A stretch of 64,000 nt of DNA, from positions 1,860,001-1,924,000 of the forward strand of contig NW_026889779.1 of the NCBI RefSeq assembly GCF_033153115.1. Reading direction: 5' to 3'. Positions within the stretch are counted from its first letter, which is position 1. Each line of letters begins with the position of its first letter. The notes beneath the pieces are model-generated. The model saw only the letters and a program-made list of their open reading frames with translations, was not told where the DNA came from and ran no database searches. The stretch is from Saccostrea echinata. Lineage: Eukaryota. Positions 17,401 through 62,326 of this stretch are shown here, piece after piece. The position numbers were made by a program, and so were the translations under genes.

Positions 17401-20400
17401 ATCAAAATAGTAACTGGCTAGTAAGTAATGATTGTCACTGAAATAGTTAGATAACCTGAGATTTATCAAAATATAGTTATTTACTGGATGCATTTGTTTT
17501 AAATCATTTCCATAAACTTTCTTTGTTAAATAAATATAAATTGCAATTATTTTATAGATACTACTGGTAATGAGAAACTGAATGCATACAAACTTAAATA
17601 AGACCATATGAAATGTACAAACATAAAAAGGTGAAATTTTAAACACATGGAATTTAATCATTATGCTTACAGCAAAACTCTTTCTTTGAACAGCAATTAA
17701 TAGAGCAAATTTATGAATATAGCAAAGTATTTTAGGTATTTACATCACCAGATCTTAACATTTTATACATAATGGAGTCAATTCCTATTTATTTAGTACT
17801 GAATACACATTGTTGATTGCCCCTTCTATGGTATATTTTAGGAAATAATTTTACATTCAATGACTATCAGCTCCATACTCTATATATAAGAGATCTCCAT
17901 ACATTTATTCAAATGTTTCTGAAAAGGGGGTTGTTATGGACGCCTATGTAACACATCCGAGGTTATTTTTCCACTTGTTTTTTGATTTCGACACCATTTT
18001 TTGTATAAAACAGTTTCTAATATACAAACCAAACCTGAACAGAAATCTGGTAAAAAGGGACCAAAATTTTTTACTGCATGACCTTGAAGTTATACCTAGT
18101 TCTAAAATTTTTAAACTTTGCATGTTGGCTTTAAAACTTTTGCACCAGAAGAAACAGGAGTTTCATATTTTTTCAAGTGTATTACCTGTGAACATGATTT
18201 TCCTGAGTGTACTATGATTTTTAACCTTAATCATGAAGTTTGACCTGGATTTTAAAATTTTTAACTTAAGCTGTAATTTTCGCACTAGAAGAGAAAGACG
18301 TTTCACATATTTTCATATGTTCATTACCTTGCAGTGACAAGATGATGATTTTTGACCCCATGTCCTATAAGTACACCTCCAAATTTGACTTTCAAAAACT
18401 TGAACATTAGCCATAACTTTTGCACCAAAACATATACTGTACTGGGGGGGGGGGGGGGGGGTACTTAACCGAAAGCAGGGAACCACATTCTTGTTTCATT
18501 CACCTCTGTTTGTTCCTCAGTGTAGCCTATACTGGACTGGTATATATTACATGCTGTATTATATTTACCTCTGTTTGTTCCTCAGTGTATAAGCCTATAC
18601 TGAAGTAGTTTATTTTACATGCTATATTTACCTGTGTTTGTTCCTCAGTGTAGCCTATACTGGACTGTATGTAGTCCAGTTCTGCGTCTGTAATGGTGGA
18701 ATGTTTGGCTGGACTCTCAGCAATCAAAAAGCACCAGCATACAAACCACAGTATACCAAGGCTACCTACAATTTACACCAGAAAAAAGTCTGTGGGATCA
18801 AAATCTGGGATTTTTAATGATGTGGAAAATAACATCCAATGTGATAGATAAAAACAGAAAATGACAGTTATATTCTAATAAAGTGTGTCCAGTATACATG
18901 TACCTGTCTATGCATATACAGGTATGTAATAATACTTTTTTTTATTCATAATCCTAACAGTAATGATCAAGTCTACAGACTAAATAATTGACAGAATCAA
19001 CAACATGAACACACATTTATGTACAAGGCCCCATAATATGCATTTATCAATATGTTTTCAACCTTGGCATTGAGTACTTGTAGGGTGGCCTCAGAATCTA
19101 CTGGCTGGGTCTTTGTATAGTGAAAATGATATCTGTGTTTTGTGCTGTGTGAAAATGTAATGAAAATATGTTGATTTTGACCTCTGATTGTCTCAAAATC
19201 TTTCCACATTTCTTCTCTTACCAATGTTTCCCCATGTATGAGCCCATGGGCCACATTGCTCACCTATGCTTTTGGCTATGAAAAAGCATAATTCAGTTTG
19301 GTATTGAAAAGTTTAAATATATAAGTGGTTCCAACCTTCCCCTAATTGGGGGGGGGGGGGGGGAGGGAGGGAGGAGGGGGAAGCACATGATTTAAACAAA
19401 CTTGAATCTTCACTAACTGAGGATTCTACCATAATTCTTAAATTAATAATGGTCTTAAAAGATTTTTAAAGATTTTTTTCCCTTTAAGTTTGATTTCTGT
19501 TGTGGCCCACCACTTCCCTGGGTTTCGTGATTTCAACAAACTTGAATCTACACTGCCTGACAATGCTTCCTTACAAATATGACCAATCATGGCTTTGCTG
19601 TTCTTGAGAAGAAGTTTTTCTAAGATTTAAAAAGATTTTTCCTATGTATTTTTTATATCTAGTACACTACCTGAAGACACTTCTATAAATATGACTAAAT
19701 ATTGGTTTGCTGTTCTTGAGGAGGAGATTCTTAAAGATGTTTCCAATGTATTTCTATCTAAAACTTTGATTGTCGAATGTGGCTCTGCCCTGCCCCCAGG
19801 CCTGGGTCATGATTTGAACAATCTTAAATCTACAACACTGCCTGACAATGCTTCCATACAAACAAGAGCAATCATGGATTTGCTGTTCTTGAGGATAAGA
19901 TTTTCTAAGATGTTTCCTATGTATTTCTATGCTAAACTTTGATTGTCCATTGTGGCCCTGCCCTACCCCAGGAGGTCATGATTTGAACAAACTTGAATCT
20001 AAACAGCCTGACAATTCTTCCGTACAAATATGAGCAATCATGGATTTGCTGTTCTTGAGGAGAAGATTTTTAAGGATGTTTCCTATGTATTCCAAACTAT
20101 GTCAAACTTTGATCGTCCACTCTGGCCCCGCCCTAACCCCCCGGGGTCATGATTTGAACAAACTTGAATCTACACTGCCTGAGGATGTTTCCACACAAAT
20201 ATGAGCAATCATGGATTTGCTGTTCTTCAGGAGAAGATTTTCAAAGATGTTTCCTATGTTAAACTTTGATCATCCATTGTGGCCCTGCCCTACCCCTGGG
20301 GGTCATGAATTTAATCCCCAAGGAATATTTCTGCTTTTACAGTATTTGTAATGAAAACAGTCACAAATGTAAATAATTATATAATTAATTAGGTATCATT

Positions 20401-50540: not shown

Positions 50541-51475
50541 AAGTCTTAAAACTTGCTTTCGATGCCGATGGAATTCTCGCGGCGCCGCCCTACACTTCAC
50601 AATCATTGAGAATGGAAATGAGATACACTTATATATTTAAACATTAGTTTTATTAGAGGATCGTTACCGATACACATAGACAGGAAAACTGACAGAAAAC
50701 AAGTAGACTTAGAACAAAGAAAGAACTTTAGGATGCTACAGTTACTACCAGATATTACAGTAATATCAACAGCATACTTATTATAGGAAAAAAATACTAA
50801 AAGAAATAATGATAGATAAACGATATCTCTCAGCTTTTCATAGAATAGTAGCAAACCAAGAAACATCAGGTCTCTATCATACAACTTAAATTGATAAATT
50901 AACAAAGCTGGTTTATCAAATTGAATAAAATTTTAATCAAATATGGCTTACCAACAGCTCTAGAAACACTAAACTACATCAAGAACAAACAAAAACAAAG
51001 CAACACAAGCGATAGCATTTTACAAGCACCAGAGCTTCGTAGGCAGAAGGATAAAACGTACGCTCAACTAGGACCTTAGGTCACCGGCTCAGTTCACAAC
51101 TATCAAACCTGTTTACTCCGCGACAAAATGTAGTGCACTGCAACCTAAAGTGAAAATAGAATAAATCGCACTACTGTGAAGCTTTTACAGTGTAAAACAA
51201 CAAACAGAAAATCTATTTTTGTCAAAGGAATAATCATCTGATATGAGGAAAGATACAGAGGGAGCAACATTGACTGCAATATATTGTAAAATATGTTATA
51301 CAGCAATGGATTACGTAGGGTGACCTGTGGTCTCCCTAATGATATTATTATTCCATGTAAGGCAACAGTATCTATTTAAGACAGTACCTAACCTCTGATC
51401 TCCTTATTAATATATCAGGGTAGGCGACCTCCTGTCTCCACATTCGCACATCCAACAGGCAGGGGGAGGAGGTAC

Positions 51476-52036
51476 TGTAGTGTTTTTTTATTTCATAATA
51501 TACGATTTTCTATTTGAGTAGACTTAAGTAGTTAACTTTTATACTTAGAGTAAATTTTTGTTTATCGCTAGCTATAGGTAGCCTAATGGCGCCCTAATAA
51601 CATTGGGTGTCTTAGAGGCCTAATCATGTTAGGTGGTAAGAGGCCCTATAACTTGGTGCCCGACACCTAATGGTGGCCTAATCATGTTAGGTAGTAGGAG
51701 GCCCTATTATTTGGGTGCCTAATAGAAGCCTAATGGATGCCTAATAGAAGCCTAACTATATTGGGCTGTCGACAGGTATATATACAGGGTGAGAGAATAT
51801 GTGCGGCAGGCACTTCTCCCCTATTTCTTGATTTACTATGATGTTATGTTGATGTAAATTTCCATAATACAATTCGTTCTACAAAAGCAAAGTGTTGTTC
51901 TTATTGATCTATAAAGATCTCAAAATCCTACGCATGTGTTGCGAATAGCACAGGATCCACATAATTTTGTGACTTGTCTGGGGTTTAAGCAGATTTGGAT
52001 ATAATCACAAGCTACATTACCCTCAGTTGCGTTACA
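51476..52036 (+). repeat. 5' LTR (561 bp)
   Basis: tgtagtg...gcgttaca. TATA-like sequence at 51777. Confidence 0.97.
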
Positions 52037-52038
52037 AT

Positions 52039-52056
52039 TGGTGGCAGCGGTGGGAT
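52039..52056 (+). promoter_or_regulatory. Primer-binding site, tRNA-Leu
   Basis: TGGTGGCAGCGGTGGGAT is the reverse complement of ATCCCACCGCTGCCACCA, the 3' end of eukaryotic tRNA-Leu(AAG/UAG). Confidence 0.88.
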
Positions 52057-52106
52057 CCAGTGAAATTATTCAAGTGCTATATTGGATTAAGCCTACACTG
52101 AGCAGG

Positions 52107-53552
52107 ATGGAAACACCAATGATAAGGAGAAGGATAACGCCGAGAAAGGTAGAACAAGATTTTGAAAGTCATTTGAATGACTCTGGAATTGGGAACTCAC
52201 CAGGGTTTGAGGGAGATGCACTACCCACAGGTCGAGTTGGGCCAGGCACACCTGATTTTCAGGACTGCAGGCCCACAAGTAGCTCGCAGGGTTGCTCTCC
52301 TGTAAAATCCGAGTTTCCTATGAGTATCTATAGAGAGAGGAGTGAGTCTAGACCGAGCTTAAAGAGAATCCTTTTCATTTGGTTTCTTTTTGCTTTGGTT
52401 GTGTGTTGTTTAATGTACATAGCCTGGACCTATTTTCCATTTAAAGAGATTGTTCAGCGATCTTATGAACACGCAACAATCTCTCTCGCATCCGCCGTGA
52501 GTGTAATACTGTTACTGATCATAACAGTATCATGGAAAAATGGGGGAACAAGCTCTGAAGCTGATGACCAGGTAAAAGAAATTTATCAGGGATCGAACTT
52601 TGGCTATTTTGGTGGCGAGGCATCTAACAGCCCAAAAGGTACCTATCAGGAACCTAATGTGGTTGGGCATCTGAGGCCTAATGCCCCTAATGTGGGTCAA
52701 GGTTCTTCTCTTGGTATAGGGCATAACTTAGAACTGCCGCTTGCTGATGCAACTCCTGTTAGCGGTCCAGTTAAAAGGACCCAGGATGAGATGGGCTCAC
52801 GGGTAAATGAATATCCAGTTAGGAGGACTTTTTCAGGAACAAACAATGATGTTTGGAATGAATTTTATCAATATTTTGAAAATATTGCTGAGCTGAACTC
52901 ATGGGGACCAGAGAAGTCTCGTCGAGTGCTGTTGAGTACACTGCGGGGCCAAGCAGAGAGTTACGCCTATGGGATACCCCTTGCAACTCAAAGGGACTAT
53001 GAACAGCTTAAACAAAAGATGGAGCAGCGATTTGGCCATTCGGCTATGAAGGAACGCTATATAGCTGATGCTAAACTAAGAAAGCGACAATCTGGAGAGT
53101 CCTTGAGGGATTTTGGACAAGCGATTGAAGACCTTTACAGGAGGGCTTATCCAGAAAACCCTGACATAGTTGAAGAAAATGCCATTAAGTCATTTTTGGA
53201 CAAATGTGGACAGTCTGAAGATTTTCGTCTGGCAGTGAAGAGGACCAGGCCTAAGACACTGCAGGAAGCTGTGCTAAATGCTATGCAAGAGGAATGCTTG
53301 CGAGTAGGAGAAAGAGAATTGTCGAAGGACCACAAAGTCGTCCACCGACAGATATATGAAATTGGAACTGAGACGGGGGAGAGTAATTTTAAGGTAGCTA
53401 CCGGTACCGCCAAGCCCCCAAGCGCGGGTGAAGGATTCCCCGGTACCCAAGAAAATCTGAGAAACCCCGAAACTTGTAGATATGGAAGGCTAGGAGGAAG
53501 GGGACGCCCTTATTATCCTAAGCACCGAAATGTTCAAACAGGGATACAATAG
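52107..53552 (+). CDS. gag: Gag with two N-terminal transmembrane helices and a capsid domain
   Basis: First ATG at 52107. CA-like FSG...W..F...FE..A..N.W...L...L.G.A and MHR-like RQSGESLRDF. The natural end is probably 53616 (QDLN*), after a frameshift. Confidence 0.88.
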   Translation: METPMIRRRITPRKVEQDFESHLNDSGIGNSPGFEGDALPTGRVGPGTPDFQDCRPTSSSQGCSPVKSEFPMSIYRERSESRPSLKRILFIWFLFALVVCCLMYIAWTYFPFKEIVQRSYEHATISLASAVSVILLLIITVSWKNGGTSSEADDQVKEIYQGSNFGYFGGEASNSPKGTYQEPNVVGHLRPNAPNVGQGSSLGIGHNLELPLADATPVSGPVKRTQDEMGSRVNEYPVRRTFSGTNNDVWNEFYQYFENIAELNSWGPEKSRRVLLSTLRGQAESYAYGIPLATQRDYEQLKQKMEQRFGHSAMKERYIADAKLRKRQSGESLRDFGQAIEDLYRRAYPENPDIVEENAIKSFLDKCGQSEDFRLAVKRTRPKTLQEAVLNAMQEECLRVGERELSKDHKVVHRQIYEIGTETGESNFKVATGTAKPPSAGEGFPGTQENLRNPETCRYGRLGGRGRPYYPKHRNVQTGIQ

Positions 53553-53606
53553 GTACACAATTCCTCGCGAACCTGCGAATTGTGTTGATAAAGAGAAAAG
53601 GCAAGA

Positions 53607-56600
53607 TTTAAACTAAATGCGACTGGTGCGGAAGGCCGGGTATCAGTCGGATTTAAGAGGCCTCAAGGAAATGAAGATTACAAGAAGGAGAGAAAGAAAA
53701 TATATTGGAAAAAGAGAAGAAAAAGTAAGGTAAATAGCAACCAGGATCATGACATCAAAGATGACGTCATTGAGAAGAACGGAAGTCGGGAGAAGACAGA
53801 AATGAAAACACAGCATACCGTAGTTGAAGGTATGCGCAATATGAGGGTTAAAGGAATGCTTGAAGGGACATCTATAGAGTGGAAAATAGATACTGGAGCA
53901 AAGCGGACGTTTGTGTCTAAAAAAAACTTTTGACAGCATCTTAGAGAAACCCACTCTAAGTCCTGTTAGTGCCACGTACGTTGTAGCGGATGGACGAACT
54001 TTGGATTGTGCTGGAGAGGCTACCATGGTACTAATCTTTGGTGACGATGCTTTTGAGCATCCAGTTATTGTAGGAGGTGTGAAGCATAACCTCCTTGGTG
54101 AAGATTTTATTGAAAAGTTTCGTTGTGGATGGGATCACGATGAAAAGAGTTTTATTATAAAAGGGGTCAAAGTACATTTGAGGGGCTCTGATGGAGTAGG
54201 GCCTGGAAGAGTGATAGCACTAGAGTCGACAGTTGTCCCAGCTGGTGGTGAAGCCCTGGTTCCTTCTGGACTCACTGGGCGTAATAAAACGAATTCAGGG
54301 GAATACCTCGGAGTTCTTACGCCTGAGAGACCTTTCATGGAACGGTATGGGTTAGCTATAGCAAGGACATTGGTTGATTCTAAAAATGCGGTAATCTACG
54401 CTAGGATATTTAACCCAAAAGCAGAGGATGTGAAGATCTACCGACATACGCACATAGCGTTATTTACCCCAATTTATAAAGTTGGACCAGTGTTTAAATT
54501 ACAAACAAGTAATAGCAATATAGAGCAAGTTGAAGTGAAGGATAGTTCGACTATTGACATCCCGGAATATCTACAGAATGTGTACAAAAAGGGATGCGAG
54601 CACCTTGATGAAACGCAAGCAAAAGTATTCAAAGAATTCATCATAAGTAAGCAAAATTGTTTTGCAAGACCAGGAGAAGTAGGAAGAACAAATCTTGGGT
54701 ACCATGAGATAAAACTTCAGGATGAAAAACCTATTCGGGAACCTCCAAGAAGAATTCCATTGCACAAGAGACAAGCTTTAGAGGAGGAAATTAAGAAATT
54801 AGAAAAACAGAACCTTATAGAAAAAAGTACAAGTCCCTGGTCATCTCAAATCGTTATGGTGCAGAAAAAGGACAAATCATGGAGGATGTGTGTTGACTAT
54901 AGGAAGTTGAATGAACAAACCATAAAGGATGCATATCCTTTGACAAGAATTAATGATAATTTAGATTCTCTCAATGGTGCAGAATGGTTTTCCTCCCTAG
55001 TTTCAGATATGGCGTACCACCAGGTACCTTTAGCAGAAGGTGACAAGGAAAAAAACTGCTTTTGCCACGCCTAGGGATGGACTGTACCAGTATATCACCA
55101 TGCCTTTCGGCCTGTGCAATGCAGCAGGTACATTTCAAAGAATTATAGAAAAAGCTCTTACCAATTTGCAGTGGTATGCTGCAGTACTGTATCTGGATGA
55201 TATTGTAGTATTTGGGAAGACGTTTGAAGAGCATTTTAAGAATTTAAACGAGGTTATGGACCGATTAGCAAAGGCTGGCCTGAAGCTCAAGCCGAAGAAA
55301 TGCCATTTCCTGAAGAAGAAAATAAGTTTCTTGGGACATGTGGTTTCAAAAGAAGGTATACAGACAGATCCAGAGAAGACAAAGGCAATAGATCAAATTC
55401 GAATACCGTCTTCTGTTAAAGAAGTGCGAAGTTTCCTAGGATTAGCCTGCTATTATCGAAAGTTTGTAAAAGATTACTCAAAGATTGCAAAGCCTCTATA
55501 CGACCTCACTAAGCAAGATAAGAAATATCTCTGGACAGATGATTGCCAAAGAGCGTTTGAAGAACTTAAGTTAAGGTTGACATCAGCACCTATCTTGGCA
55601 TATCCAAATATGGAAGGAGACGAGTTTATACTTGATACTGATGCTAGTGCCTTTGCTATTGGAGCAGTTTTGTCTCAAAAGCAAGATGGTAAGGAGAGGG
55701 TTATAGCCTATGGAAGCAGGACACTTAATAAGCCAGAAAGGAATTATTGTGTTACAAGAAGAGAAATGTTGGCTGTAGTATACTTTACAAGGTATTTCAA
55801 GCATTATCTACTAGGGAAAAGGTTTACACTTAGGACTGATCATGGTTCTCTCACATGGCTGAAAAATTTCAAAGAACCTGATGGCCAAATACACAGGTGG
55901 ATTCAGCAACTTAGTCAGTTTCACATGAAGATAGTGCATAGGCCAGGAAGCAGACATGGAAATGCAGATGCAATGTCAAGGTTAACAGAATTACCAAAAG
56001 AAGTATGTAAGCAATGCAAAATGCCGAGTAACTTCATGTATCAAGGACCTACAGAAGTAGACGTTCCATATATGAAAGAGGGACAGCAAGATGATAGAGT
56101 GCAAGCTGTGAGTAATGAAGAAGTTTTAGAGGAGGATTCAGAATCTGAAAGTCCTAACTTATTCCCAAATAATGGAAGTAATGGTGGACTAGATGATTCA
56201 AATGTGGCTGATGGAATGCCTATTTTGAGGAGAGGTAGAAAGGTAAACAGACCCGCACCTGCGAAACAAAGACTCAGACCCAAGCTCGATCTTAACTACA
56301 CTACACTGAGAAAGGAGCAAGAGGATGATACAGTAATTGGAAAAATACTTAAGCTGAAAGAGAGCAATGCTGAGAAACCAGAAAAGGATAAAATTATAGC
56401 AGAGAGTCCAGAATTTAAATTTTGGTTGTCAAGGTGGGAGATATTGGAGGTGAGAGATGGGGTTCTTTGTATCCTATGGGAAGATAGTTCAAAAAGATGG
56501 CGGATCTGTGCCCCAAAATCTATTTTGCATGTTGTAATGTGGCACCTACACGACTCCAAGCTATCAGGACATCAAGGAATTAAGAAAACTGTGGAAAAAG

Positions 56601-57919
56601 CAAAGATTTGTCCATTTTACTGGTGGGGTATTGTACGAGATATAAGAGAGTATGTGCAGAAATGCGAGATATGTGAGGAACGGAAAGACCCCCCAAACAA
56701 AAAGCGTCATTTTCTACAGAAGTATGTTGTAGGCGGCCCATTTGAGAGAATTGCCACGGACCTCGCAGGACCATTCCCAACTACTGAGAGGGGGAATCGC
56801 TACATATTAGTAATAGGAGATTATTTTACCAAATTGACGGAAGCGTATCCATTAGAAAATATAACAGCTGAGACTGTAGCTGATGTTTTGTTTCGTGCAT
56901 GGATAAAAAGATATGGTTGTCCAGCTGAGGTGCACTCCGACCAAGGGAGACAGTATGAAAGTGCTTTATTTCTTGAGTTGTGTCGAATGTTACAGGTTAA
57001 TAAGACGAGGACAACTCCTCTACATCCAAGGTCGGATGGCATGATAGAGAGGATGAATAGGACCATACAAGACATGCTGTCAAAGTACATAAAGAGTCAT
57101 CAAAAAGACTGGGATCTACATTTGGATTATATCACCTTGGCATATAATTCAACGCCTCATGAGAGTACTAGTGTATCGCCTCATAAAATGGTATTTGGAA
57201 GAGAAATTAAACTACCACTTGACTTTATGGCGAATAATGTAGTTGAAGAGGAAACGTTTGAGACAGATTTTGTGCGGAATTTGAGAGATAACTTGTGCCA
57301 GGCTCACGAATTTGCACGCAAGTCCTTGCAGAAATCGTCAGAAAGGCAGAAACAACAGTATGATTTGAAAGTTAGGGAAAAGAGCTATGAGATAGGTCAA
57401 TTAGTGTGGAGGAACCAGAAAATAGTTACACCAGGAAAAAAACAGAAAATATGCAGGAATTGGAATGGCCCCTGGGTAATAACAAAGAAGATTAGTGAAG
57501 TACTCTACAAAATCCAACATAAGGAGGACTTACCTGGAGTTGTCGTCCACGGGGATAATTTAAAAGAATACAAAGGGGAAAAGAAAATTAATTGGTTTAA
57601 TGGAGGATTTCAGGAAGAAAGTTTGCCTACAGAACTACCAAATTTAGAGGCTTTTAAAGATGCTGACCATTTAGAAAGAAATTGTGAAATAAAATCCAGA
57701 AATAAAGACAAATTCGCAGACGCCGAACCGGGACCTAACGCAGACACCGAATTAGAATCGGAGTCGGACGCCGAAATGAGATCGGGTACAGAGTCTGCAA
57801 TTATTGTAAACAGAAATGCCACGAGGTTTGGAAGAAGTGTAAGAAAGCCCGAAAAATTTAAAGATTATGTTAGTAATGTACAGCTAAAGAATGGATGTTC
57901 GGAAATCGGTATTATGTAA
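53607..57919 (+). CDS. pol: Pol (PR, dUTPase-like insert, RT, RNase H, IN), split by two +1 frameshifts
   Basis: PR IDTGA (~53890). RT WRMCVDYRKLN, MPFGLCNA, YLDD. RH LDTDAS, EMLAVV, TDH. IN H-H-C-C, D(LAGP), D(QGR), ERMNRT. Frameshifts in A-runs at ~53920 and ~55050. Confidence 0.95.
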
Positions 57920-58721
57920 ATATTGTGGAAAGTTATTTGCTAGCGTGAAAAATCTAAAACGACATGAAAATCAAAGACACAAGAACATTGTCAAAGTGAG
58001 GAAGTGCCCCTTAGATAACTGTGGAATTTATACCTTTAGATTAGAATACTTAGTGTCCCACCTGAAGAGATTTCACGGAAAACAGCACAATGATGCTAAG
58101 GAAATCGCAAAATTATCGATAATAGAACTTAAAGAGAGAGAGGAAATTAAGGAAATAAATCTGAAGATTCGTGCCCGTCAAAAACAAAGGATGATGGATA
58201 GAGAGAATAACAACACATCATTGGTATTAGGGGACGAAGAAGACATTTTGGATATTGACGTGCCAAAAGAGGAACAAGAGACAATAGATTTTGATATACT
58301 GGAGGAAGACTGGGTGAATACTCTCTTAGAGGGAATTTCTGGAGAAAAAGAGGAATTAGATGATCATGTGTCAGAAATTTCGAATGAAAGTAAAGAAATC
58401 GTGCAACCATTAGAAGAGGACGTGCCAAAAGACAACGAAGAAATAGAGTGTGATCCTGATGAGAATGTTAAACAAGGAGAGCCTTCTTCAGCAACAGATG
58501 TATCGGAAGTCGTAGAGACCATCACTATCAATCTAGTAACTACGAGAAGAATAACACCCAATGGTATTTCCATCAGGCGGAATCATCAAATATCTACTTC
58601 TAGATTTATCCGACCGGAACAGATTGACTGGATGAATTTCTTTTCCTATCTGCAAAATGAAATACTTGAGTACGCTAAGGAAGAACACGAGAGGGATTGT
58701 GACGCGGAAGACTTAGACTAA
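57891..58721 (+). CDS. ORF3: two C2H2 zinc fingers plus an acidic domain (276 aa)
   Basis: CKYC-x12-HENQRH and CPLDNC-x12-HLKRFH, then a D/E-rich C-terminal half. Intact, overlaps the pol stop by 29 nt, and lies inside the element. Confidence 0.85.
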   Translation: MDVRKSVLCKYCGKLFASVKNLKRHENQRHKNIVKVRKCPLDNCGIYTFRLEYLVSHLKRFHGKQHNDAKEIAKLSIIELKEREEIKEINLKIRARQKQRMMDRENNNTSLVLGDEEDILDIDVPKEEQETIDFDILEEDWVNTLLEGISGEKEELDDHVSEISNESKEIVQPLEEDVPKDNEEIECDPDENVKQGEPSSATDVSEVVETITINLVTTRRITPNGISIRRNHQISTSRFIRPEQIDWMNFFSYLQNEILEYAKEEHERDCDAEDLD

Positions 58722-58985
58722 AAAAAAACTCATTGTGTTCAAGCTAACTCAGGGATCAAGTGACTTTGAAATATATTTTGACATTTGCAAAATTATTAGG
58801 GTGCTAACGACATGACTGTATTTTACCATATTATCCATCGTTTTAATATGTTTTTTTTTTTTAAATTGTTCTAGTCAGTTATTTGTACATTGTTTTTTTT
58901 TATATTGATCAAGTAAGTTTGTATACGTTTTTTTTTTTAATTGTCTTTGTTTTTTTTTAATGGACAGTGGAAGTCCAATCTTCTT

Positions 58986-58994
58986 AAGGAGGGA
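58986..58994 (+). promoter_or_regulatory. Polypurine tract
   Basis: aaggaggga, 4 nt before the 3' LTR. Confidence 0.7.
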
Positions 58995-58998
58995 CCAT

Positions 58999-59557
58999 TG
59001 TAGTGTTTTTTTATTTCATAATATACGATTTTCTATTTGAGTACACTTAAGTAGTTAACTTTTATACTTAGAGTAAATTTTTGTTTATCGCTAGCTATAG
59101 GTAGCCTAATGGCGCCCTAATAACATTGGGTGTCTTAGAGGCCTAATCATGTTAGGTGGTAAGAGGCCCTATAACTTGGTGCCCGACACCTAATGGTGGC
59201 CTAATCATGTTAGGTAGTAGGAGGCCCTATTATTTGGGTGCCTAATAGAAGCCTAATGGATGCCTAATAGAAGCCTAACTATATTGGGCTGTCGACAGGT
59301 ATATATACAGGGTGAGAGAATGTGCGGCAGGCACTTCTCCCCTATTTCTTGATTTACTATGATGTTATGTTGATGTAAATTTCCATAATACAATTCGTTC
59401 TACAAAAGCAAAGTGTTGTTCTTATTGATCTATAAAGATCTCAAAATCCTACGCATGTGTTGCGAATAGCACAGGATCCACATAATTTTGTGACTTGTCT
59501 GGGGTTTAAGCAGATTTGGATATAATCACAAGCTACATTACCCTCAGTTGCGTTACA
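58999..59557 (+). repeat. 3' LTR (559 bp)
   Basis: Differs from the 5' LTR by 1 substitution and one 2-nt indel, by eye. Confidence 0.97.
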
Positions 59558-60254
59558 GTACATTATAGGTCTTGCCCCCCACCCCGCTCGGACTCTTCAC
59601 TGATCCTTAAAGATAATGGAATAATTATTTGGTAATAAATCATATTAGGTGTCCTCTGGTCTCCCTTTTGAGGTCATACCTCAATAGGCGACCTTATCAG
59701 TTTAACACTCTAGTAAACCTCTGGTTAATATTAATCTTACAGAGTAGATGTATGCCCAGTCTTGCAAGGATGGAGGCTGAAGTTCTCCTCCCCTTTCCCT
59801 GGAATTTACTCTTATCAAATTCATAAACGAATCAAAACTACTAGTATATTTTCCAAAATAATAAACTTAAAAAACATGGATTCATTGTCAATTGCTTGTG
59901 GGATACATATACTGTATATGAAGGAAAAGTTGTCTAATGTCATCCCCATCCAATTACATAAATTTAGAAAATTAATTTGGAGAAATTGTGAAATTGTTGG
60001 CTTGCAAAAAAAACAGGGTCTCAATTTTTGTTTGGAGTGAATTTGAAAAATAATTCTTCACATGGAACATTTTTTAAATTGTCTTCTTATAACTTCAAAA
60101 GTTTTCCTAATAATGAACAATATAAGATTACCTCTGGTCTACTGTTTCATATACCACTTCGTCTGACCTCTGATATCCTTATTGATGTACAATATAAGAC
60201 AAACTCATGTTTCCATATTCTTTATGTGGGGAGCAGAGGAAACATAAAGTTTAT

Positions 60255-62326
60255 ATGAATAGGGAGACCATAGGTCCCCTTATATTGTACATCATTGGGA
60301 GGATCAAAGATCACATTGTATTGTACATCAAAAGAAAGACAAGAGGTCCCCTTATATCCTACATCTATAGGGAGACCAGAGGTCCCCTTACATCCTACAT
60401 CTATAGGGAGACCAGAGGACACCTTATATTGTACATAATTAGGGGGACCAGAGGTCACCTTATATCCAATATTAATAGGGAGACCAGAGGTCCCCTCATA
60501 TCCTACATCTTTAGGGAGACCAGAGGACACCTTGTATTGTACATCAATAGGGAACCCAGGGATCATTTGTACATCAACAGGGAGACCAAAGGTCCCCTTA
60601 TATCCTACATCAGTAGGGAGACCAGAGGACACTTTATATATTACATCAATAGGGAGACCAGAGGTCCCCTATATCGTACACCAACAGGGAGACCAGAGGT
60701 CCCCTTATATCCTACATCCATAGGGAGACCAGAGGACACCTTATATTGTACATCAAAAGGGAGACCAGAGATTTCTTATATTGTACACCAATAGGGAGAC
60801 CAAAGATCCCCTTATACCCTACATCAGTAGGGAGACCAAAGGATACCTTATATTTAACATCAATAGGGAGACCAGAGGTCACCTTATATTGTACATTAGT
60901 AGAGAGACCAGAAGTCACATTATATTGTACATGAATACGGAAACCTGGGGTCCCCTTATTTTATTAATCATTGGGGTGACCATATTTCATATAAAAGTGT
61001 TTTTAAATACGGAGACCAGATCGCGTCTTATGTTGTACATTATTCAAGAGACCAGAGATCACATAAAGTTGTGTATGAATATGAAGACCAGAGGACACCC
61101 TATATTGTTCATCATATGCAGACCACTGGTCACATAAGGCTGTGTATAATATGAATACGGAGACCAGAGGTCCCCTAATATTGTACATCAATAGGGAGAC
61201 TAGAGGTAACATATATTGTATTGTACATAAATACGGAGACCAGAGGACACCTTATATTGTAAAGAATTAGGGAGACCAGAGGTAACTTATTTTGTACATC
61301 GATAGGGAGACCAGAGGACACCTTATATTGTACATAATAAGGGGGACCAGAGGTCACCTTATATTGTACATCAATAGGGAGACAAGAGGTCACTTACTTT
61401 GTACATCAATAGGGAGACTAGAGGTAACATATATTGTATTGTACATAAATACGGAGACCAGAGGACACCTTATATTGTAAAGAATTAGGGAGACCAGAAG
61501 TAACTTATTTTGTACATCGATAGGGAGACCAGAGGACACCTTATATTGTACATAATAAGGGGGACCAGAGGTCATCTTATATTGTACATCAATAGGGAGA
61601 CCAGAGGACACTGTATATTGTACATAATTAGGGAGACTAGAGGTAACTTATTTTGTACATCAATAGGGAGAGCAAGGTCACCTTATATTGTAGATCAATA
61701 GGAACACCAAAGGTCCCCTTATATCCTACATCATTAGGGAGACCAGAGATCCCCTTATATCCTACATCTCTAGGGAGACCAGAGGACACCTTATATTGTA
61801 CATCATTAGGGAGACCAGAGGTCACCATATATCCTGCATCAGTAGGGAGACCAGAAGACACCTTATATTGTACATCAATAGGGAAACCAGAGATCACTTA
61901 TATTGTACATCAATAGGGAGACCAAAGGTCCCCTTATATCCTACATCAGTAGGGAGACCAGAGGACACTTATATTGTACATCAGTAGGGAAACCAGAAGA
62001 CACCTTATATTTGACATCAATAGGGAGACCAGAGGTCACCTTATATTGTACATTAGTAGGGAGACCACAGGTCCCCTTATATCCTACATCAGTAGGGAGA
62101 CCAGAAGACACCTTATATTGTACATCAATAGGGAAACCAGAGATCACTTATATTGTACAGCAATAGGGAGACCAAAGGTCCCCTTATATCATCATTAGTA
62201 GGGAGACCAGAGGACACCTTATATTGTACATCAATATGGAAACCAGAGGACATCTTCTATTTTACATCAATAGGGAGACCAGAAGTCACCTTATATTGTA
62301 CATTAGTAGGGAGAACAGAAGTCACA
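60255..62326. repeat. ~36-bp minisatellite array
   Basis: Unit agggagaccagaggacaccttatattgtacatcaat, repeated about 55 times with variants. Confidence 0.95.

Follow-up and report, generated by a model that had tools for sequence, protein, structure and literature searches.

Retrotransposons with long terminal repeats (LTRs) are presumed to depend on the transcription factors of their hosts, and self-encoded promoter regulators are a hallmark of complex retroviruses, as well as of certain DNA transposons. A Ty3/Gypsy retrotransposon in Saccostrea echinata raises the question of whether an element of this group, too, carries the gene for a regulator of its own promoter. It occupies positions 51,476 to 59,557 of the window, a stretch of 64,000 nucleotides of contig NW_026889779.1 (positions 1,860,001 to 1,924,000) from whose first letter all coordinates are counted. 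The initial annotation drew attention to two hydrophobic helices in Gag, to a third open reading frame (ORF3) with two zinc fingers and an acidic region, and to eleven CCTAAY motifs in the LTR, and proposed an autoregulatory circuit combined with env-independent membrane targeting. The best overall explanation, to which we give a probability of roughly two in three, is that ORF3 encodes a two-finger regulator of the LTR, probably an activator, and that Gag is anchored by a hydrophobic hairpin. ORF3 would bind to site pairs that lie directly ahead of the element's own TATA box, and its acidic middle would activate transcription of the element, creating a positive feedback loop specific to the family. 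Support for this explanation comes more from a match between fingers and sites across the whole clade than from the focal copy.

The focal ORF3 is open throughout its 276 codons. It has a basic N-terminus, two C2H2 fingers, an acidic middle (36% Asp and Glu in residues 106–200) and a conserved C-terminal domain, much as had been described. The fingers match Pfam zf-C2H2 at E = 7e-5, narrowly short of the curated threshold, and conform to two C2H2 patterns. No hydrophobic window in the protein exceeds 1.6, and identity with env, as in errantiviruses, was rejected for this reason and for the presence of the fingers. Sequence-cluster look-alikes are generic zinc-finger or unnamed clusters, and in oyster databases ORF3 proteins carry the names of host factors (‘EVI1-B-like’, ‘Cp190-like’, ‘tramtrack’). 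For the C-terminal domain there are 114 matching clusters at 50% identity. Of these, 42 reach a length of 190 residues or more; two fingers are present in 17 of the 42 and one in three, and in one the domain is joined to an integrase tail. A fold search with this domain returned nothing above Z 3.2 (COMM domains, root-mean-square deviation 8–10), a match given no weight.

For comparison we used 40 elements of the same genome, out of 91 Gag matches, together with 40 shorter ORF3 loci; the first eleven elements fetched were picked partly with ORF3 matches in mind. By the recognition code of C2H2 fingers, G is specified by Arg at −1 and +6, A by Asn at +3, C by Glu at +6, and either G or T by Lys at +6. 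The common form of finger 2, RxxNLxR, predicts GAG, and this prediction was noted ahead of inspecting the LTRs. The U3 regions of relatives contain CTC-N5-GAG palindromes or GAGGAG repeats directly before the TATA box. Blind predictions for four families were matched in three, for the most part as inverted pairs separated by 5 bp: NAG-GAG for L045 (found as TAGGAG, AAGGAG and CAGGAG), CAG-GAG for L057, in which Glu occupies +6 (found twice), and GAG-NAN for L048/L052, of which L048 has its key residues in common with L019 and does not count as fully independent. Across 14 families, the predicted hexamer is enriched in the family's own U3 at p<0.05 in nine, and matched finger–U3 pairings score above permuted ones at p = 2e-5. 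In stricter runs p was 1e-4 when each pattern was represented by a single family and 0.005–0.008 once the two strongest families were dropped; with capped scores included, the overall range is 1e-4 to 0.008. Two multi-finger proteins without a pol tail (L067, L070) were left out of the finger-pair and site-test counts, in L027 and L043 the TATA box was selected manually, and copy L007 supplied the fingers for the L003 family. A stricter search for sites that made no use of the code was too strict and yielded nothing further. Among CTN-(n)-NAG pairs the most frequent spacing is n=5, with 21 seen and 5.7 expected, and there is a second peak of 13 at n=2. Direct binding of U3 sites by ORF3 is, at the level of the clade, quite probable on these comparisons. 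That two ORF3 molecules occupy each site, perhaps joined through the C-terminal domain, has about even odds; a two-copy prediction of the domain, with a score of 0.05, speaks neither for nor against it.

The focal U3 contains 11 CCTAAY motifs within 175 nucleotides (51582–51756; nine forward, two reverse) against 0.88 expected. The maximum in 1000 shuffles is five, and the best 5-mer of any shuffle reaches eight; a chance cluster was rejected by this comparison. The array noticed at the outset, just upstream of the TATA box, is thus real; its unit needs to be redefined, as the inverted pair CCTAA-N5-TTRGG rather than the lone CCTAAY: CCTAA-n-TTR occurs four times, always with n=5. CCTAAY is limited to the focal sub-lineage, and GAG-type sites prevail in most relatives. 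The sister family has CCTAA-N5-GAG four times and CCTAA-N5-TTA once, and hence CCTAA occupies the position of the ancestral CTC half-site of CTC-N5-GAG. Finger 2, RxxNLxR before, has become RxEYLxS in the focal lineage and there has a CX4C knuckle. In the register of the N5 pair, TTR would be the triplet read by finger 2 and GGN the one read by finger 1; this agrees with Arg at +6 of finger 1 but not with its Asn at +3. For the focal family, then, it is geometry and register that point to putative cognate sites, not the finger code, and binding of the CCTAA-N5-TTRGG pairs by ORF3 is likely, less firmly so than binding at the level of the clade. Other registers (TRG-G, NNG-GWG) were discarded: they are post hoc, and the N5 pair is stronger. 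A focal-type finger 2 occurs in P0272 from another source (RxDYLxS), and no family of that kind turned up in this genome.

These features are not peculiar to one copy. A tree of reverse transcriptase–RNase H segments from loci of this one genome, midpoint-rooted and comprising 32 of 41 rows (nine lacked the 150-residue segment), separates 23 rows with two Gag helices from nine without, with 100/100 support; the focal lineage is a long branch nested within the two-helix clade. The finger pair is present in 23 of 31 clade loci, four more retain remnants of ORF3, and the remaining four also lack integrase. The motif of the pol tail lies just upstream of 29 of 38 finger pairs, and a polypurine tract downstream of 30 of the 38. 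Between families ORF3 is under purifying selection, with a ratio of nonsynonymous to synonymous change (dN/dS, by simple codon counting) of about 0.2: 0.18 for the focal copy versus its sister L001 and 0.18–0.24 in six other family pairs. The recurrence of the features across the clade eliminates a one-off element, and dN/dS together with the pol-tail and polypurine-tract context eliminates a captured host gene or a neutral reading frame. ORF3 and the Gag helices are neither absent from sister copies nor evolving neutrally there, so that neither refuting condition named at the outset holds. Of the three features, the two-helix Gag and ORF3 extend over the clade and the CCTAAY motif does not. 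Five of the nine loci of the helix-less sister clade have a different zinc-finger ORF3, so a finger ORF3 does not require Gag helices. That protein (L032–L036, encoded between pol and the 3' LTR) has a C2HC-like and a C2H2 finger and an invariant QT, presumably resembling an LC8-binding motif, and its start is directly preceded by a pyrimidine-rich AG acceptor. Scans of other sources for relatives returned two metagenome loci and none from viruses or prokaryotes. As a separate observation, some loci contain only the first 65 codons of a focal-like ORF3 (G000:C36:4933022, C36:6514000, C5:2050378, C5:12849715 and similar ones), and the three such loci fetched (L072, L073, L078) have no focal-type TATA anchor; these are possibly a deleted derivative that spreads on its own.

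Several observations weigh against a self-encoded regulator. The code is a general one for C2H2 fingers, and the subset used was fixed after the LTRs of ten families had been seen. The fourth blind prediction, GAG-NAG for L043, missed at the last base (the U3 shows GAG-CAA); enrichment of the own site is not significant in L009, L011 or L043; and the reversed order of fingers is also enriched in several families. Families share ancestry and for the most part a common finger 2, so the permutation p-values overstate independence, and all of the LTR evidence comes from one genome. In the focal family itself the predicted site, NNG-GAN, is not enriched (z=−1.5; 0.6 in the sister family). The focal array was built partly by 11-bp tandem copies, and tandem duplication is common in LTRs. 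The switch of finger 2 and U3 site in the focal lineage is suggestive, and is a single correlated event. For ORF3, dN/dS is 0.34–0.69 in four pairs whose copies are close or decayed, the remaining pairs being saturated; in the helix region of Gag, by the same simple counting, it is 0.14–0.63. In the two-helix clade, finally, the ORF3 start abuts or overlaps the pol stop, and no splice acceptor is evident ahead of it, unlike in the sister clade. The autoregulatory circuit of the initial annotation accordingly draws its support from relatives, through co-variation over 14 families, and not from the focal motif, which the code misses.

Such points could be accommodated if host factors read the U3 sites and ORF3 had another role, such as RNA binding or export of the CERV kind or the tethering of integration, the match between fingers and sites being an inherited coincidence. 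The families are related by descent, four besides the focal one show no significant enrichment, and TAAT is a common homeodomain core. We nevertheless regard this alternative as quite improbable. A change of one residue goes with a change of one base (Glu+6 with CAG, Gly+6 with NAG, Ser+3 with GNG), the effect vanishes in a control of 170 nucleotides downstream of the TATA box (p=0.42), and the 5-bp inverted pair occurs in 11 of 14 U3s of the clade but in one of six U3s of the sister clade.

If ORF3 does bind its own U3, it might do so as a repressor that limits the element and controls its copy number, or as a shield of the promoter against silencing. In several families no more than a few bases separate the sites from the TATA box, and a motif that follows the fingers in most relatives, YEDISSDEE (e.g. 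L014, L019 and P0123), presumably resembles corepressor- or SUMO-binding motifs. Long acidic regions like that of ORF3 are, on the other hand, typical of activation domains. The focal lineage, moreover, has lost YEDISSDEE, together with the CCHC knuckle of Gag and a small reading frame found ahead of gag in relatives, and yet it retains and multiplies the sites. We therefore consider repression or shielding unlikely, if less so than reading by host factors, and activation through the acidic middle the likelier mode of action. Shielding has a precedent in the VANC proteins, which act by anti-silencing (PMC5735166).

The second component of the favoured explanation, a membrane-anchored Gag, is independent of the fingers. 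Kyte–Doolittle hydropathy of the focal Gag peaks at 2.8 (residues 88–106) and 2.5 (residues 123–141), and the modelled protein has helices there, in agreement with what had been claimed. The model is all-helical from 250 to 408 after the hairpin, with the remainder of low confidence. The capsid region gave no Pfam capsid match, and a PDB sequence search gave only weak knuckle matches; the CCHC knuckle itself is absent from the Gag of the focal sub-lineage. Of the database homologues, 82 have at least 150 residues ahead of the capsid region; in 69 of these, two hydrophobic segments precede the capsid, in 11 there is one and in two there is none. The proline of the loop is invariant across 35 aligned Gags. 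Basic residues flank both outer ends of the hairpin, and their placement outside the helices, with the shortness of the loop, suggests that both ends of Gag are cytosolic. Anchoring of Gag in an internal membrane by the two-helix hairpin is probable. With both its ends facing the cytosol, Gag might assemble capsids on the endoplasmic reticulum or the envelope of the nucleus, with the hairpin in the role of a matrix domain. The N-terminus of Gag (52107–52360) is rich in S/T-P and contains DSGIGNS; mussel relatives keep DSGxxxS/T-P, which we take to resemble a beta-TrCP phosphodegron.

Of the env-independent targeting proposed initially, anchoring is likely, and a further step can be imagined in which the hairpin replaces env and particles bud or pass between cells in the manner of sORF2 of the MDG1 group. 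Such a role is compatible with the regulatory reading of ORF3, and the hairpin is kept across a clade that has no env; env-less spread from cell to cell by means of a small membrane protein is known (PMC11952523). Only about 10 residues separate the two helices, however, leaving no ectodomain, and the odds of an env-like role are low on this account. The hairpin is also part of Gag rather than a separate small protein, and Gag lacks an MG myristoylation start. We rate this extension as improbable.

Complex retroviruses encode trans-activators of their LTRs (foamy-virus Tas, HTLV Tax, HIV Tat), of which Tas binds DNA directly. The focal element resembles them in that a putative regulatory gene, located after pol and ahead of the 3' LTR, would act on repeated U3 elements, and differs in its Gypsy-type pol, its lack of env and its predicted C2H2 regulator. 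With VANC of the VANDAL elements (PMC5735166) it shares the joint divergence, between families, of an element protein and repeated target motifs; VANDAL is a plant DNA transposon, however, and VANC acts by removing methylation. CERV of Cer1 (PMC10309623) is likewise an accessory regulatory protein of a Gypsy-type element, but is a Rev-like RNA exporter, with a possible C4 finger, and not a C2H2 reader of DNA. LTR elements of bdelloids (PMC5408684) also have third reading frames other than env; these encode a GDSL esterase, a DEDDy nuclease or membrane proteins, and ‘zinc’ does not occur in the text available. The MDG1 group (PMC11952523), with its sORF1 and sORF2, is comparable in its env-less membrane route and in its small reading frames before gag, which relatives of the focal element also have. 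It differs in that the focal helices are inside Gag and the small reading frame of the relatives encodes a four-cysteine and not a membrane protein; ahead of the focal gag there is no separate short transmembrane frame. Ty1 Gag is targeted to the endoplasmic reticulum without a transmembrane domain, unlike the focal Gag (PMC3945221), and the reference list of the same article gives, by title, IAP Gag as a further env-less comparison. MolGy1-16, the mollusc Ty3/Gypsy clades defined by reverse transcriptase and RNase H (PMC6238403), are likewise bivalve elements of LTR-gag-pol structure with the order protease, reverse transcriptase, RNase H, integrase, and the focal clade is likely to be one of them; the available text on MolGy does not contain ‘zinc’, ‘third ORF’, ‘transmembrane’ or ‘PBS’. 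We found no description of the architecture in the literature searched, which covered few subscription papers and took in the available parts of PMC10294476, PMC13524379 and PMC12992720, and a term search of bioRxiv 10.64898/2026.08.24.746577, also in part, gave no matches; entries in Repbase, Dfam or GyDB may already note ORF3.

The anatomy of the focal copy is summarized in the table. By structure the element belongs to Ty3/Gypsy, with direct LTRs, target-site duplication, primer-binding site and polypurine tract and with the pol order protease, reverse transcriptase, RNase H, integrase, and the LTR pair differs by one substitution and one 2-nucleotide indel, as expected of a young insertion. 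In pol, the DTG motif is followed by matches to Pfam RVT_1, RT_RNaseH, Integrase_H2C2 and rve. The nearest named relatives are mussel and oyster sequences.

Features of the focal element (positions in the window)
Feature	Position	Strand	Remarks
Left target-site duplication, GTAC, 4 bp	51472..51475	+	right copy 59558–59561
5' LTR (TG...CA)	51476..52036	+	
U3 array, 11 CCTAAY	51582..51765	.	four inverted pairs CCTAA-N5-TTRGG start at 51593, 51619, 51677 and 51751
TATA box	51777..51784	+	
Primer-binding site	52039..52056	+	presumably tRNA-Leu type; common to two-helix clade and sister clade
gag, 481 aa as read	52107..53552	+	
Two hydrophobic helices of Gag, aa 85–109 and 119–146	52359..52544	+	short F-P loop; from hydropathy and structure model
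Helical capsid-type region of Gag, aa 250–408	52854..53330	+	model confidence (pLDDT) mostly >90; homologues named ‘Retrotransposon gag domain’
pol: protease DTG motif, reverse transcriptase, RNase H, integrase	53592..57919	+	open stretches 53592–53933, 53890–55074, 55034–57919
ORF3, 276 aa	57891..58721	+	start overlaps pol stop
Two C2H2 fingers	57915..58076	+	recognition helices SVKNLKR and RLEYLVS
C-terminal domain of ORF3	58491..58718	+	predicted beta-hairpin and long helix, pLDDT 84
Polypurine tract and spacer	58986..58998	+	
3' LTR	58999..59557	+	same motif array at 59105–59288

As assembled, the copy is not intact, a point that the initial annotation does not mention. Its gag is frameshifted and terminates early relative to the sister copy, and pol occupies three reading frames, interrupted at A-runs close to 53,920 and 55,050. 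These breaks may be mutations or assembly errors. At 53607–53616, where sister Gags terminate, TTTAAAC is followed by a stop; this is likely, from its sequence and position, to be a −1 frameshift site into pol. The focal leader is 68 nucleotides long and without a reading frame. The small frame of relatives lies between primer-binding site and gag (e.g. L012:1252-1479:+) and encodes 71–91 residues with two CxxC pairs, zinc-ribbon-like but with no useful Pfam match. It occurs in L009, L011–L016, L018, L019, L021 and L024–L028, and is absent from the focal lineage and the sister clade; a second, distantly similar frame occurs in L011, L023 and L024. The element is inserted between degenerate copies of a 36-bp tandem array, of which about 58 copies lie at 60258–62325 and degenerate inverted copies at 51304–51445 and 59633–60220. 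Further tandem arrays, with units of 146, 156, 166 and 171 bp, lie at 4827–6670, 10922–14209 and 19706–20308.

Taken jointly, the observations lean, by a small measure, toward a widespread bivalve Gypsy clade of complex retroelements, in which each family's dimeric C2H2 factor and LTR site would have been rewired together into a private circuit of positive feedback. The focal lineage would record the series CTC-N5-GAG, CCTAA-N5-GAG, CCTAA-N5-TTRGG, and the clade would combine these circuits with a membrane-integral Gag and, in most families, a small zinc-ribbon frame. Short proteins and sites of 17 bp would allow the idea to be tested directly. If the ORF3s are element genes, their annotation as host factors in oyster databases is misleading. 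If the regulatory explanation is correct, self-encoded promoter regulation arose in Metaviridae too, and the clade offers a natural series of finger–site pairs with which to study the co-evolution of regulators and their targets. A membrane hairpin within the capsid protein itself would, in turn, be a new way of choosing the site of assembly.

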